Shown here: in pieces, positions 18,507 through 25,800 of the stretch
Numbering within the stretch: the first letter of the stretch is position 1
Layout: each line of letters begins with the position of its first letter
Assembly (NCBI RefSeq): GCF_003334815.1
Contig: NZ_QOWO01000043.1
DNA: 31,047 bases
Strand: one strand, 5' to 3'
DNA from: Escherichia coli
GTDB lineage: Bacteria; Pseudomonadota; Gammaproteobacteria; Enterobacterales; Enterobacteriaceae
The notes under the pieces: generated by a model
The model's input: only the letters and a program-made list of their open reading frames with translations
Told to the model about the DNA's origin: nothing
Databases searched by the model: none
Position numbers and translations under genes: made by a program

Positions 18507-21500
18507 TTACTCGTTATCAGAACCGCCCAGACCTGCGTTCAGCAGTTCTGCCAGGCTGGCAGATGCGTCTTCTGCAGTCACCTGCGGTGCAGCCGGAGCT
18601 TCACCCGCAGCACGGCGACGCATACGATCCTGGTGGTACGCGTAACCGGTACCTGCCGGGATCAGACGACCCACGATAACGTTCTCTTTCAGGCCGCGCA
18701 GTTCGTCGCGTTTGCCCGCAACGGCTGCTTCGGTCAGCACGCGAGTGGTCTCCTGGAACGATGCCGCGGAGATGAAGGACTCGGTTGCCAGAGACGCTTT
18801 GGTGATACCCAGCAGATCGCGGGAGTAAGTTGCACCCACTTTGCCGTTCGCTTCCAGTTCGCGGTTTGCGATCTTGACGCGAGAGTATTCAACCTGTTCG
18901 CCTTCCAGGAAGTCGGAGCTACCCGCGTTAACGATGGTAGCTTTACGCAGCATCTGACGAACGATAACTTCGATGTGTTTATCGTTAATCTTAACGCCCT
19001 GCAGACGGTATACGTCCTGTACTTCGTTAACGATGTAACGAGTAACAGCATGAACACCACGCAGACGCAGAATGTCGTGCGGCGCTTCCGGACCGTCGGA
19101 AATTACGTCACCACGTTCTACACGTTCACCTTCGAACACGTTGAGCTGACGCCATTTCGGAATCATCTCTTCGTACGGATCGCTACCGTCTACCGGGGTG
19201 ATAACCAGACGACGTTTACCTTTGGTTTCTTTACCGAAGGAAACGATACCGCTGATTTCAGCCAGGATTGCCGGCTCTTTCGGACGACGTGCTTCGAACA
19301 GGTCCGCAACGCGCGGCAGACCACCGGTGATGTCCTTGGTACCGCCGGATTCCTGCGGAATACGCGCCAGGGTGTCACCAGAGCTGATCTGTACGCCATC
19401 TTCCAGCTGAACAATCGCTTTACCCGGCAGGAAGTACTGCGCTGGCATATCGGTACCTGGGATCAGAACGTCGTTACCCTGAGCATCAACGATTTTCAGT
19501 GCCGGACGCAGATCTTTACCACCTGCGGTACGTTCTGCGGAATCCAGAACCACCAGCGAAGACAGACCGGTCAGTTCGTCGGTCTGACGCGTAATGGTCT
19601 GGCCGTCGATCATGTCAGTAAAGCGTACAAAACCGCTTACTTCGGTGATAACCGGCATGGTGTGCGGGTCCCAGTTTGCAACGGTTTCGCCGCCAGCAAC
19701 CTGTTCGCCATCGCCTTTCGCCAGTACCGCACCGTAAGGTACTTTGTAGCTTTCTTTAGTACGACCGAATTCGTCGATCAGTTTCAGTTCAGTATTACGG
19801 GAAGTGATAACCAGTTTACCGCTGGAGTTCACAACCGACTTCACGTTGCTGAGCTTGATGCTACCTTTGTTTTTCACTTGGATGCTGGATTCAGCAGCCG
19901 CACGAGATGCCGCACCACCGATGTGGAACGTACGCATGGTCAGCTGTGTACCCGGTTCACCGATGGACTGTGCCGCGATAACACCGATTGCTTCACCCTT
20001 GTTGATGATGTGGCCACGCGCCAGGTCACGACCGTAGCAGTGCGCACATACACCAAAGTCGGTGTCACAAGATACAACAGAACGTACTTTAACCGCGTCG
20101 ACAGAGTTCTCTTCCAGCAGGTCACACCACTGTTCGTGCAGCAGCGTGTTGCGCGGAACGAGGATATCAGCAGTACCCGGCTTCAGAACGTCTTCAGCAG
20201 TTACACGACCCAGTACGCGATCGCGCAGCGGCTCTTTAACGTCACCACCCTCGATAACCGGAGTCATCATGATACCTTCATGGGTACCACAATCGTCTTC
20301 GGTAACCACCAGGTCCTGCGCCACGTCAACCAGACGACGAGTCAGGTAACCGGAGTTCGCAGTTTTCAGTGCGGTATCCGCCAGACCTTTACGAGCACCG
20401 TGGGTGGAGATGAAGTACTGGAGTACGTTCAGACCTTCACGGAAGTTCGCGGTGATTGGCGTTTCGATGATGGAGCCATCCGGCTTCGCCATCAGACCAC
20501 GCATACCAGCAAGCTGACGAATCTGTGCCGCAGAACCACGCGCACCGGAGTCGGCCATCATGTAGATGCTGTTGAAGGAAACCTGCTTCTCTTCCTGACC
20601 GTCACGGTTAATCACGGTTTCAGTTTGCAGGTTATCCATCATCGCTTTGGATACACGATCGTTCGCCGCAGCCCAGATATCGATAACTTTGTTGTAGCGT
20701 TCGCCCGCAGTTACCAGACCAGACTGGAACTGCTCCTGAATTTCAGCAACTTCTGCTTCTGCCTCGGAGATGATTTCGTGTTTCTTCTCCGGGATGACCA
20801 TGTCATCGATACCAACAGATGCACCAGAACGCGCTGCATAGGCGAAGCCGGTGTACATGATCTGGTCCGCAAAAATAACGGTCGGTTTCAGACCGAGAAT
20901 GCGGTAGCAGGTGTTCAGCATTTTGGAGATTGCTTTTTTACCCAGCGCCTGGTTGACGATGGAGTAAGGCAGACCTTTCGGTACAATCATCCACAGAATG
21001 GCACGGCCAACAGTCGTGTCTTTCAGGCTGGTTTTCGCTACTAATTCACCGTTAGCATCTTTTTCATACTCGGTGATACGCACTTTAACGCGCGCATGCA
21101 GAGAAGCCAGACCAGAGCGATACAGACGTTCTGCTTCTTTCGGGCCAGTCAGCACCATGCCTTCGCCTTTGGCGTTAACACAGTCACGGGTCATGTAGTA
21201 CAGACCCAGTACAACGTCCTGAGACGGAACGATGATTGGTTCGCCGTTCGCCGGGGACAGGATGTTGTTGGTAGACATCATCAGCGCACGCGCTTCCAGC
21301 TGGGCTTCCAGCGTCAGCGGTACGTGAACAGCCATCTGGTCACCATCGAAGTCGGCGTTATATGCCGCACAAACCAGCGGGTGTAGCTGGATAGCTTTAC
21401 CTTCGATCAGTACCGGTTCAAATGCCTGGATACCCAGACGGTGCAGAGTCGGTGCACGGTTCAGCAGTACCGGGTGTTCGCGGATAACTTCGTCCAGGAT

Positions 21501-22806: not shown

Positions 22807-25800
22807 TTACTCGTCTTCCAGTTCGATGTTGATACCCAGCGAACGAATCTCTTTCAACAATACGTTGAAGGATTCTGGCATGCCCGGCTCCATCTGATGG
22901 TTGCCGTCCACGATGTTTTTATACATCTTGGTACGACCGTTCACGTCATCAGACTTAACGGTGAGCATTTCCTGCAGGGTGTATGCTGCGCCGTATGCTT
23001 CCAGCGCCCACACTTCCATCTCCCCGAAACGCTGACCACCGAACTGTGCCTTACCACCCAGCGGCTGCTGAGTAACCAGGCTGTAAGAACCGGTGGAACG
23101 CGCGTGCATCTTGTCGTCGACCAGGTGGTTCAGTTTCAGCATGTACATGTAACCAACGGTTACCGGACGCTCGAACTGTTCACCAGTGCGACCATCGTAC
23201 AGGCGGATCTGACCGGAAGTCGGCAGGTCGCCAAGTTTCAGCAGCTCTTTAATTTCTGCTTCTTTCGCACCGTCGAACACCGGCGTTGCGATTGGCATAC
23301 CTTTGCGCAGGTTTTCAGCCAGACGCATAACTTCTTCATCGCTGAAGGTACTCAGGTCAACTTTCTGACGAACGTCAGCGCCCAGATCGTACGCACGCTG
23401 GATGAATTCGCGCAGTTTCGCGACTTCTTGCTGCTGTTTCAGCATGGCGTTGATCTTGTCGCCGATACCTTTCGCAGCCATACCCAGGTGGGTTTCGAGG
23501 ATCTGACCGATGTTCATACGAGACGGTACGCCCAGCGGGTTCAGTACGATGTCTACCGGCGTACCGTTTTCATCGTAAGGCATATCTTCGATCGGGTTGA
23601 TCTTAGAAATTACACCCTTGTTACCGTGACGACCTGCCATCTTGTCACCAGGCTGGATACGGCGTTTAACCGCCAGATATACCTTAACAATCTTCAGCAC
23701 GCCCGGTGCCAGATCGTCGCCCTGGGTGATTTTGCGGCGTTTCGCTTCGAGTTTCTTCTCGAACTCGTGTTTCAGTTCGTCATACTGCTCAGCCAGCTGT
23801 TCCAGCTGATTTTGTTTCTCTTCGTCTGTCAGGCCCAGCTCCAGCCAGCGATCGCGCGGCAGTTTGTCGAGCTTCTCAGCTTCAACGCCACCGGCTACCA
23901 GCACAGCACGGATACGGCTGAACAGACCCGCTTCGAGGATCTGCAGTTCTTCAGACAGGTCTTTCTTCGCCTGTTTGAGCTGCATTTCTTCGATTTCCAG
24001 CGCACGTTTGTCTTTTTCTACGCCATCGCGAGTAAAGACCTGAACGTCGATAACCGTACCGGATACACCGTTTGGTACGCGCAGAGAAGAGTCTTTAACG
24101 TCAGAGGCTTTCTCACCGAAGATCGCACGCAGCAGTTTTTCTTCTGGGGTCAGCTGAGTTTCACCTTTCGGCGTTACCTTACCAACCAGAATGTCGCCAC
24201 CGGTCACTTCCGCACCAATGTAAACGATACCGGATTCATCCAGTTTGGAGAGCGCAGCTTCACCCACGTTCGGGATGTCAGCGGTGATCTCTTCCGGACC
24301 CAGCTTGGTGTCACGGGACACACACGCCAGTTCCTGAATGTGGATGGTGGTGAAACGGTCTTCCTGAACAACACGCTCGGATACGAGGATGGAGTCTTCG
24401 AAGTTGTAACCATTCCACGGCATGAACGCTACGCGCATGTTCTGACCAAGCGCCAGTTCACCGAGGTCGGTGGACGGACCGTCTGCCAGCACGTCGCCAC
24501 GTTCAACCGGTTCACCCAGAGACACACACGGCATCTGGTTGATACAGGTGTTCTGGTTAGAACGGGTGTATTTGGTCAGGTTGTAGATGTCGATACCTGC
24601 TTCACCCGGATACATCTCGTCTTCGTTAACTTTGATAACGATACGGGAAGCATCCACGTACTGAACGACACCACCACGTTTAGCTACCGCAGTTACACCG
24701 GAGTCAACGGCAACAGCACGTTCCATACCAGTACCAACCAGCGGCTTATCAGCGCGCAGAGTCGGAACGGCCTGACGTTGCATGTTCGCACCCATCAATG
24801 CACGGTTGGCGTCATCGTGTTCCAGGAACGGGATCAGGGACGCACCGACGGATACCACCTGCTGGGTGGATACGTCCATGTAGTCAACCTGGTCGCGGCT
24901 GAACAAGCTGGATTCGCCTTTGCTACGGCAAGTTACCAGGTCTTCTACGAAGTGGCCTTCTTCATCCAAGTTGGAGTTCGCCTGGGCGATAACGTAGTTG
25001 CCTTCTTCGATAGCAGACAGGTAGTGAATTTCGTCAGTTACAACACCGTCGGTCACTTTACGATACGGAGTCTCAAGGAAGCCGTATTCGTTAGTCTGTG
25101 CGTACACGGACAGAGAGTTGATCAGACCGATGTTCGGACCTTCAGGGGTTTCGATTGGACATACGCGACCGTAGTGAGTCGGGTGTACGTCTCGAACTTC
25201 GAAGCCTGCACGTTCACGGGTCAGACCGCCTGGGCCGAGTGCGGAGATACGACGTTTGTGCGTAATCTCAGACAGCGGGTTGTTCTGGTCCATAAACTGA
25301 GACAGCTGGCTGGAACCGAAGAACTCTTTCACTGCTGCGGAAATCGGCTTGGCGTTGATCATATCCTGTGGCATCAGGGTATCCAGATCGCCCAGAGACA
25401 GACGCTCTTTCACCGCACGCTCTACACGTACCAGGCCAACGCGGAACTGGTTTTCCGCCATTTCGCCAACGGAACGGATACGACGGTTGCCGAGGTGGTC
25501 GATATCATCGACTTCGCCTTTACCGTTACGGATATCGATGAGCTTTTTCATAACATCAATGATGTCGTCTTTGCTCAGGATACCGGAACCTTCGATTTCT
25601 TCGCGCAGCAGAGAACGGTTGAACTTCATACGACCAACCGCAGACAAGTCATAACGGTCTTCGGAGAAGAACAGGTTCTCGAACAGGCTTTCAGCTGCTT
25701 CACGAGTCGGCGGCTCGCCAGGGCGCATCATGCGGTAGATTTCTACCAGTGCGCTCAGACGGTCGTTAGTTGGGTCGACACGTAAGGTTTCAGAGATATA

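Follow-up and report, generated by a model that had tools for sequence, protein, structure and literature searches.

A 31,047-nucleotide stretch of Escherichia coli DNA (RefSeq assembly GCF_003334815.1, contig NZ_QOWO01000043.1), hereafter the window, carries exceptionally long open reading frames (ORFs) on the strand opposite rpoB, rpoC and purH. Are these overlapping genes, or are they a by-product of the genes they face? A preliminary description, made from the sequence alone, had treated them as artefacts of stop-codon depletion opposite codon-biased genes. We find that the long antisense ORFs opposite rpoB, rpoC, purH and several other genes are almost certainly non-coding shadow ORFs, created by the codon bias of long, highly expressed genes. 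The window covers the purH–tufB region of E. coli, its genes being identified through an annotated E. coli chromosome that matches at 100%. The 8.6 kb surrounding the shadow ORFs is 100% identical to E. coli chromosomes, and 5421 of 5426 complete genomes of the species contain it. Our ORF listing gives the same coordinates as the preliminary description for the ORFs of 962, 803 and 528 amino acids (aa) and for those opposite purD, zraR, thiC and rplA/rplK. The two sense genes of chief interest and the three longest shadow ORFs are as follows:

22807-26835, minus strand: rpoB, RNA polymerase beta, a real gene of 1342 codons (from the annotation of an identical E. coli record and codon counts)
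18507-22730, minus strand: rpoC, RNA polymerase beta', a real gene of 1407 codons with a GTG start (from the annotation and codon counts)
22897-25785, plus strand: 962-aa shadow ORF with an ATG start (from the ORF listing), codon-aligned antisense, opposite rpoB codons 1313 down to 352
25783-25785, plus strand: TAA closing the 962-aa ORF, the reverse complement of the sole TTA of rpoB (Leu351)
18633-21044, plus strand: 803-aa shadow ORF with a GTG start, codon-aligned antisense, opposite rpoC codons 1366 down to 564
21042-21044, plus strand: TAA closing the 803-aa ORF, the reverse complement of rpoC TTA563
677-2263, minus strand: 528-aa shadow ORF with a GTG start, aligned antisense to purH (548-2137, plus strand), closed opposite TTA44

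Every antisense ORF of at least 250 aa (10/10) lies at offset 0 to its sense gene, i.e. in the codon-aligned antisense frame. In this frame, TAA, TAG and TGA are possible only opposite sense TTA (Leu), CTA (Leu) and TCA (Ser). The ORF ends coincide exactly with these codons; the closing stops are the complements of rpoB TTA351, rpoC TTA563 and purH TTA44. TTA351 is the single TTA/CTA/TCA codon among the 1342 of rpoB (a leucine), rpoC has five in 1407 (TTA4, TTA5, TCA32, CTA449 and TTA563), and purH has only TTA44 in 529. From stop to stop, the open stretches thus bounded measure 1002 codons opposite rpoB (22777-25782), 846 codons opposite rpoC (18504-21041) and 536 codons opposite purH. The depletion is confined to the aligned antisense frame: it holds one stop in rpoB vs 46 and 61 in the other two antisense frames, and five in rpoC vs 33 and 73, these other frames being near random density, and the alternative sense frames (+1/+2) of the two genes hold 53–91 stops. 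From base composition, about 1.6e-15 stop-free runs of at least 1002 codons would be expected in the six frames of the window, and the observed frames go far beyond what random sequence would yield; we nevertheless rejected naive chance as a useful null, as a figure of this order (~1e-15) ignores the sense gene.

The codons in question are rare in rpoB and rpoC, and so are many others. Within their amino acids, TTA, CTA and TCA account for 1.5%, 0.4% and 0.7% of codons in rpoB and rpoC (rpoBC). The corresponding figures are 2.7%, 0% and 1.7% for the remaining highly expressed genes, and 11.4%, 3.5% and 8.5% for the ordinary genes of the window. Relative to ordinary genes, the rpoBC share is 0.13 for TTA, 0.11 for CTA and 0.08 for TCA. 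For AGA, AGG, ATA, CCC, CGG, GGA and CGA, none of which makes an antisense stop, the rpoBC share is 0–0.08 of that in ordinary genes. Rare codons without an antisense stop are therefore equally or more depleted, and the depletion reflects a general avoidance of rare codons rather than of stops. A codon-adaptation index calculated without leucine and serine also predicts the TTA/CTA/TCA share (rho = -0.59, P = 0.003, in 23 genes outside the reference set described below), with rpoC, rpoB, purD and purH holding its top ranks.

The preliminary description had proposed synonymous shuffling as a check on whether stop depletion exceeds what sense codon usage predicts. We ran it, and the depletion went no further than the codon usage of the genes themselves, or of other highly expressed genes, would predict. 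Resampling with the usage of a highly expressed reference set (rplLJAK, tuf, nusG, secE and hupA), which is small and whose pseudocount inflates the expected number of stops, gave about 6 stops per gene and a longest run with a median of ~480 codons and a 95th percentile of ~900. Under this model, the probability of a longest run at least as long as the observed one was 0.024 for rpoB and 0.078 for rpoC, both uncorrected. Using the pooled usage of rpoBC, it was 0.13 and 0.29, respectively, and using synonymous permutation within each gene, 0.57 and 0.08. Once multiple tests are allowed for, neither the own-usage nor the highly expressed nulls are exceeded. A genuine overlapping gene would be expected to leave a frame longer than synonymous permutation of its mother gene predicts; the shadow ORFs of rpoB and rpoC are not longer than this.

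These results suggest a simple origin. Strong translational selection would act on rpoB, rpoC and the genes for ribosomal proteins and, less markedly, on purH and purD. Judging by what is established about codon usage in E. coli, such selection is presumably the cause of the codon bias in rpoBC. Genes under it would use nearly only CTG for leucine and TCT, TCC or AGC for serine, so that TTA, CTA and TCA would almost vanish together with all other rare codons. The stop-free antisense stretches reach ~850–1000 codons because rpoB and rpoC are very long. The open frame itself would not be under selection, but would open and close as the sense gene acquires synonymous changes that are neutral or nearly so.

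To see how the frame behaves across species, we scanned gammaproteobacterial genomes (one per species), giving 80 rpoB loci, 73 of them with rpoC; correlations were calculated on 79 rpoB and 71 rpoC genes. The number of stops in the aligned antisense frame follows the GC content at third codon positions (GC3) closely, with rho = -0.94 for rpoB and -0.95 for rpoC. It spans from 0 (GC3 0.93) to 127 in rpoB and 144 in rpoC (GC3 ~0.1). Open runs of at least 800 codons occur opposite rpoB in eleven unrelated species, and in 33 species there are none above 150 codons. Within the Enterobacterales, the Salmonella rpoB has 0 antisense stops and that of Enterobacter has 2 (codons 305 and 633), the one at codon 633 falling inside the E. 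coli 962-aa ORF. In other relatives, we counted 14 in Erwinia (9 of them inside the span of the 962-aa ORF), 10 in Pectobacterium, 9 in Candidatus Pantoea persica, 25 in Photorhabdus and 40 in Budvicia. In all, six of these genera have stops within the 962-aa ORF (Enterobacter, Erwinia, Pectobacterium, Pantoea, Photorhabdus and Budvicia). The rpoC segment beneath the 803-aa ORF is cut at codon 635 in both Salmonella and Enterobacter, and a second time at codon 1175 in the former and codon 1283 in the latter. The openness of the frame follows codon usage and GC3, not phylogeny, and its boundaries are not conserved.

The same is seen within the species. We compared the window with eight E. coli genomes that are 98.9–99.7% identical to it. 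RpoB and RpoC differ at 0–1 residues each in these strains, while the antisense translation differs at 3–50 positions opposite rpoB and 16–36 opposite rpoC; up to 50 substitutions in the antisense product thus accompany 0 changes in RpoB. In one of the eight strains (STLEFF_47), a synonymous CTA at rpoC codon 807 truncates the 803-aa ORF. CTA188 is found in rpoC in one strain and CTA204 in rpoB in three, and the CTA449 of the window's rpoC, whose antisense stop bounds a 398-aa ORF, is missing from all eight. An overlapping gene should be intact across the clade that carries it, and neither the 803-aa nor the 962-aa ORF is.

The rate of divergence points the same way. Between E. coli and Salmonella, 225 of the 249 differences in rpoB affect the third position of a sense codon and hence the first position of an antisense one. 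The sense proteins are 98.5–98.7% identical (RpoB 98.7%), with a ratio of non-synonymous to synonymous substitution rates (dN/dS) of 0.03, while the antisense product is 83% identical, with an apparent dN/dS of 3.3–5.4 (NG86). A preprint describes such a pattern as the signature of an unselected frame -1 ORF (bioRxiv 10.1101/724807). By this apparent, NG86-based measure, the purifying selection expected on a functional overlapping frame is not seen. The preliminary description's reading of the ORFs as artefacts of antisense stop depletion thus agrees with the frame relation, the non-specific depletion and the null models, and further with the lack of conservation of the frames in E. coli and the Enterobacterales and the unconstrained divergence of their products.

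The predicted products look like reflections of the sense genes. They are rich in V, T, F, L, R and Q, the mirror images of preferred sense codons, and the 962-aa product has one methionine in total, because sense CAT is avoided. The preliminary description had called these translations low-complexity. This was overstated; with an entropy of 3.9–4.0 bits vs 4.09 for RpoB, RpoC and PurH, they are compositionally skewed instead. Its remark that a Shine-Dalgarno (SD) and start context is missing held up, as no SD-like sequence lies 5' of the start of the 962-aa or the 803-aa ORF. A promoter consensus scan of 18300-27100, which is weak evidence, gave no plus-strand site; it gave two sites in total, both on the minus strand, vs 6.0 ± 2.7 in shuffles. 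None of the antisense products had a match below E = 0.01 in Pfam, NCBIfam or PDB, leading us to reject homology to a known protein, and an Rfam scan of both strands gave no RNA family inside rpoBC. In the literature, we likewise found no report that the antisense strand of rpoB or rpoC is transcribed or translated, although this is only absence of evidence. Neither gene is mentioned in two initiation-profiling studies (bioRxiv 10.1101/511675 and 10.1101/2021.07.02.450978) or in papers on antisense overlapping genes, and a search of the supplements of Zehentner et al. was uninformative for rpoB and rpoC, since even the main-text gene dacA was not found there. The shadow ORFs are probably not expressed.

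Several observations pull against codon bias as a full explanation. With ordinary-gene usage as the null, ~25 stops are expected per gene and the depletion is highly significant (P<0.0002); average-gene usage is, however, the wrong null for highly expressed genes and would wrongly flag these ORFs. The number of stops in rpoB is nominally low even by the standard of the small highly expressed set (1 vs ~5–6 expected, P ~0.01–0.05, uncorrected). Species with an E. coli-like GC3 (0.58–0.60) have 13–38 antisense stops in rpoB, and E. coli has far fewer. We rejected GC content as the sole cause as insufficient on these numbers, and the near-absence of stops in E. coli therefore needs strong translational selection beside GC content. 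Finally, the frame can look coding-like to software. On an ENA metagenome scaffold (ZHON19-1_SAMEA4813904_METAG-scaffold_3435), the gene caller took the 962-aa ORF and the adjacent 367-aa ORF and no rpoB (L085:335-4348, equivalent to 22897-26910 in the window).

Could at least one of the long antisense ORFs nevertheless be a genuine overlapping gene, on the model of Pseudomonas aeruginosa olg1/olg2 and pop of enterohaemorrhagic E. coli (EHEC)? This would imply a plus-strand transcript in rpoBC, a protein of ~800–960 aa and purifying selection against stops, and we consider it very improbable. The extreme lengths of the ORFs, significant against genome-average codon usage, would speak for it, as would the nominal shortage of stop-making codons in rpoB relative to the small highly expressed set; against this, the depletion is not specific to stop-making codons and does not exceed the genes' own usage. 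The TTA351 boundary is common to the eight sampled E. coli strains and to all examined members of a database cluster described below, yet the 803-aa ORF is broken in one E. coli strain, Salmonella and Enterobacter, and the 962-aa ORF in Enterobacter and five further genera. Pseudomonas does offer claimed examples of long antisense genes in frame -1 (PMC8850804), but here the product gains up to 50 substitutions while RpoB gains none, the apparent dN/dS is 3–5, there is no SD, promoter-like site or protein family, and a 962-aa product with a single methionine has a composition that mirrors the sense codons. We give next to no credence to a narrower version of this idea, in which the 962-aa or 803-aa frame is translated as a young, lineage-restricted overlapping gene whose openness is partly selected beyond codon bias; its only hint is the single stop-making codon of rpoB, against the ~5–6 that the small highly expressed set predicts.

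A different proposal asks for no function. Pervasive antisense transcripts may give rise to noisy, unselected polypeptides, a reservoir of 'proto-genes' as envisaged in Ikehara's non-stop-frame idea and in studies of pervasive translation. Such open lengths would permit long products if antisense RNA and a start site were used. Initiation profiling has revealed small proteins encoded on antisense strands in E. coli (bioRxiv 10.1101/511675), and antisense ORFs made up 12% of novel ORFs in a further study (bioRxiv 10.1101/2021.07.02.450978), but neither paper mentions rpoB or rpoC. There is also no promoter-like site on the antisense strand over 8.8 kb and no SD at the ORF starts, and head-on transcription against two very heavily transcribed genes would be expected to suppress antisense RNA. 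Occasional translation would moreover leave the length of the ORFs unexplained, while codon bias already explains it. We therefore think it very unlikely for these ORFs, and favour non-coding shadow ORFs produced by codon bias.

The practical importance of shadow ORFs lies in misannotation and in claims of overlapping genes; they have no biological import, as rpoBC almost certainly conceals no second gene. A large protein collection contains the exact 962-aa sequence, in a cluster that is built at 90% identity and has 243 members. Among these, a Shigella sonnei entry (SIY30250.1; UniProt A0A8B4CNS9; 886 aa) stands in NCBI and UniProt under the name 'Uncharacterised protein'. The cluster members examined either end at the TTA351-derived stop or equal the adjacent 367-aa ORF. 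We considered new stops as the cause of the varied copy lengths (139–962 aa) and rejected this, since all copies end at the TTA351-derived stop; the lengths vary through start choice or contig effects, and alternative ATG, GTG and TTG starts also exist in the window. Tests that use genome-average codon usage as the null will call shadow ORFs highly significant. The null should instead be built from the codon usage of the host gene itself or of highly expressed genes, and conservation should be checked as well.

The remaining shadow ORFs of the window are shorter:

21441-22637, plus strand: 398-aa shadow ORF, aligned antisense of rpoC, bounded by stops opposite codons 449 and 32
25807-26910, plus strand: 367-aa shadow ORF, aligned antisense, opposite the 5' third of rpoB
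28374-29687, plus strand: 437-aa shadow ORF, aligned antisense across rplA (28497-29201) and rplK (29205-29633)
2458-3324, minus strand: 288-aa shadow ORF, aligned antisense to purD
3576-4424, plus strand: 282-aa shadow ORF, aligned antisense to zraR
12521-13291, minus strand: 256-aa shadow ORF, aligned antisense to thiC

The 437-aa ORF crosses two genes, rplA and rplK, which are in a common frame and have zero TTA/CTA/TCA codons. By the annotation of the identical record, the window holds, in this order, purH, purD, zraR, zraS, zraP, yjaH, hupA, yjaG, nfi, hemE, nudC, rsd, thiCEFSGH, yjaZ, rpoC, rpoB, rplL, rplJ, rplA, rplK, nusG, secE and the start of tufB.

Some features of the sense genes and their surroundings were observed along the way. 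Upstream of the annotated rpoB start (26836-26868, minus strand), the frame is open for 11 further codons, with an in-frame ATG at 26868; because of this, the ORF listing gives rpoB as 1353 aa rather than the annotated 1342 aa. The first 35 codons of rpoC (22625-22730, minus strand) hold three of its five TTA/CTA/TCA codons (4, 5 and 32), and all three are kept in Salmonella and Enterobacter. These early codons are what shuts the antisense frame near the start of the gene. Among 23 codon-biased gammaproteobacterial rpoC genes, TTA/CTA/TCA codons are about tenfold denser within the first 35 codons than beyond them (0.0236 vs 0.0023). The 5' ends of coding sequences are known to favour A/U-rich, weakly structured stretches, and the higher density fits this. 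Just 3' of rpoC, and just upstream of the frame of the 803-aa shadow ORF, 18462-18485 forms a perfect palindromic hairpin, AAAAACCCGCCGAAGCGGGTTTTT, with A-run and T-run flanks that make it terminator-like in both orientations. It probably ends rpoC transcription on the minus strand.

Next to rpoB, the rplL gene (27155-27520, minus strand) encodes an L7/L12 of 121 aa in the window and of 122 aa, with one extra alanine, in strain 300709, whose rpoBC is 100% identical. The difference is a 3-nucleotide in-frame indel within the alanine-rich hinge, and the Enterobacter L7/L12 is also 122 aa long. The rplL–rpoB spacer (27089-27150, minus strand) matches the Rfam family 'Pseudomonas sRNA P26' at 74.5 bits (gathering score 36). 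This spacer is the region of the known rplL–rpoB attenuator and processing site. Two expected E. coli features lie further away: the small RNA sroH (Rfam, 201 bits) at 17593-17753 on the plus strand, between thiH and yjaZ, and a thiamine pyrophosphate (TPP) riboswitch 5' of thiC (11800-11900, plus strand).

How do these shadow ORFs compare with systems already described? The preliminary description had called antisense stop depletion a known effect, and the literature bears this out. Long non-stop frame -1 antisense ORFs arising from codon bias have been reported repeatedly (Merino et al. 1994 NAR 22:1903; Silke 1997 Gene 194:143; Mir et al. 2012 PMC3454372), and AntiFam defines a 'shadow ORF' class of spurious proteins (PMC3308159). 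A more recent preprint gives the TTA/CTA/TCA formula and names dnaA, dnaK and rpoB as constantly expressed genes that have such antisense ORFs through codon optimisation (bioRxiv 10.1101/724807). The effect is thus already described, with rpoB named, and is nothing new. The rpoBC ORFs share with these cases the codon-aligned frame, the rarity of TTA, CTA and TCA and the class of highly expressed hosts, as well as the non-conservation, the apparent dN/dS above 1 and the spurious 'uncharacterised protein' entries. We see no substantive difference, except that the rpoBC cases rank with the longest E. coli examples, since few highly expressed genes of this species match rpoB and rpoC in length.

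The antisense ORFs of dnaK/hsp70, as cited in the preprint (Rother et al. 1997, in 10.1101/724807), are likewise very long, in frame -1 and opposite a conserved, highly expressed host. In the preprint's account of them, the frame recurs in many species because the codon bias recurs. The dnaK antisense frame also drew claims of homology to the NAD-dependent glutamate dehydrogenase (NAD-GDH), by the same account; the rpoBC frames have a different host, and no homology was found for them.

A closer comparison is with claimed antisense genes. P. aeruginosa olg1/olg2 (PMC8850804), EHEC pop, asa, laoB, ano and nog1 are likewise antisense ORFs embedded in annotated genes, and olg1/olg2 further resemble the shadow ORFs of rpoBC in lying in frame -1 and spanning hundreds of codons. 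Claimed genes such as olg1/olg2 are backed by RNA-seq, Ribo-seq and mass-spectrometry signals; they are also reported to stay intact across their clade to a degree beyond simulation, to show dNN/dNS <1 and to lie in mother genes with reduced synonymous variation (PMC8850804). The rpoBC ORFs, in contrast, are broken in relatives and within the species, their product diverges freely, and no expression signals are visible in the sequence. The codon bias of the mother genes fully accounts for their length.

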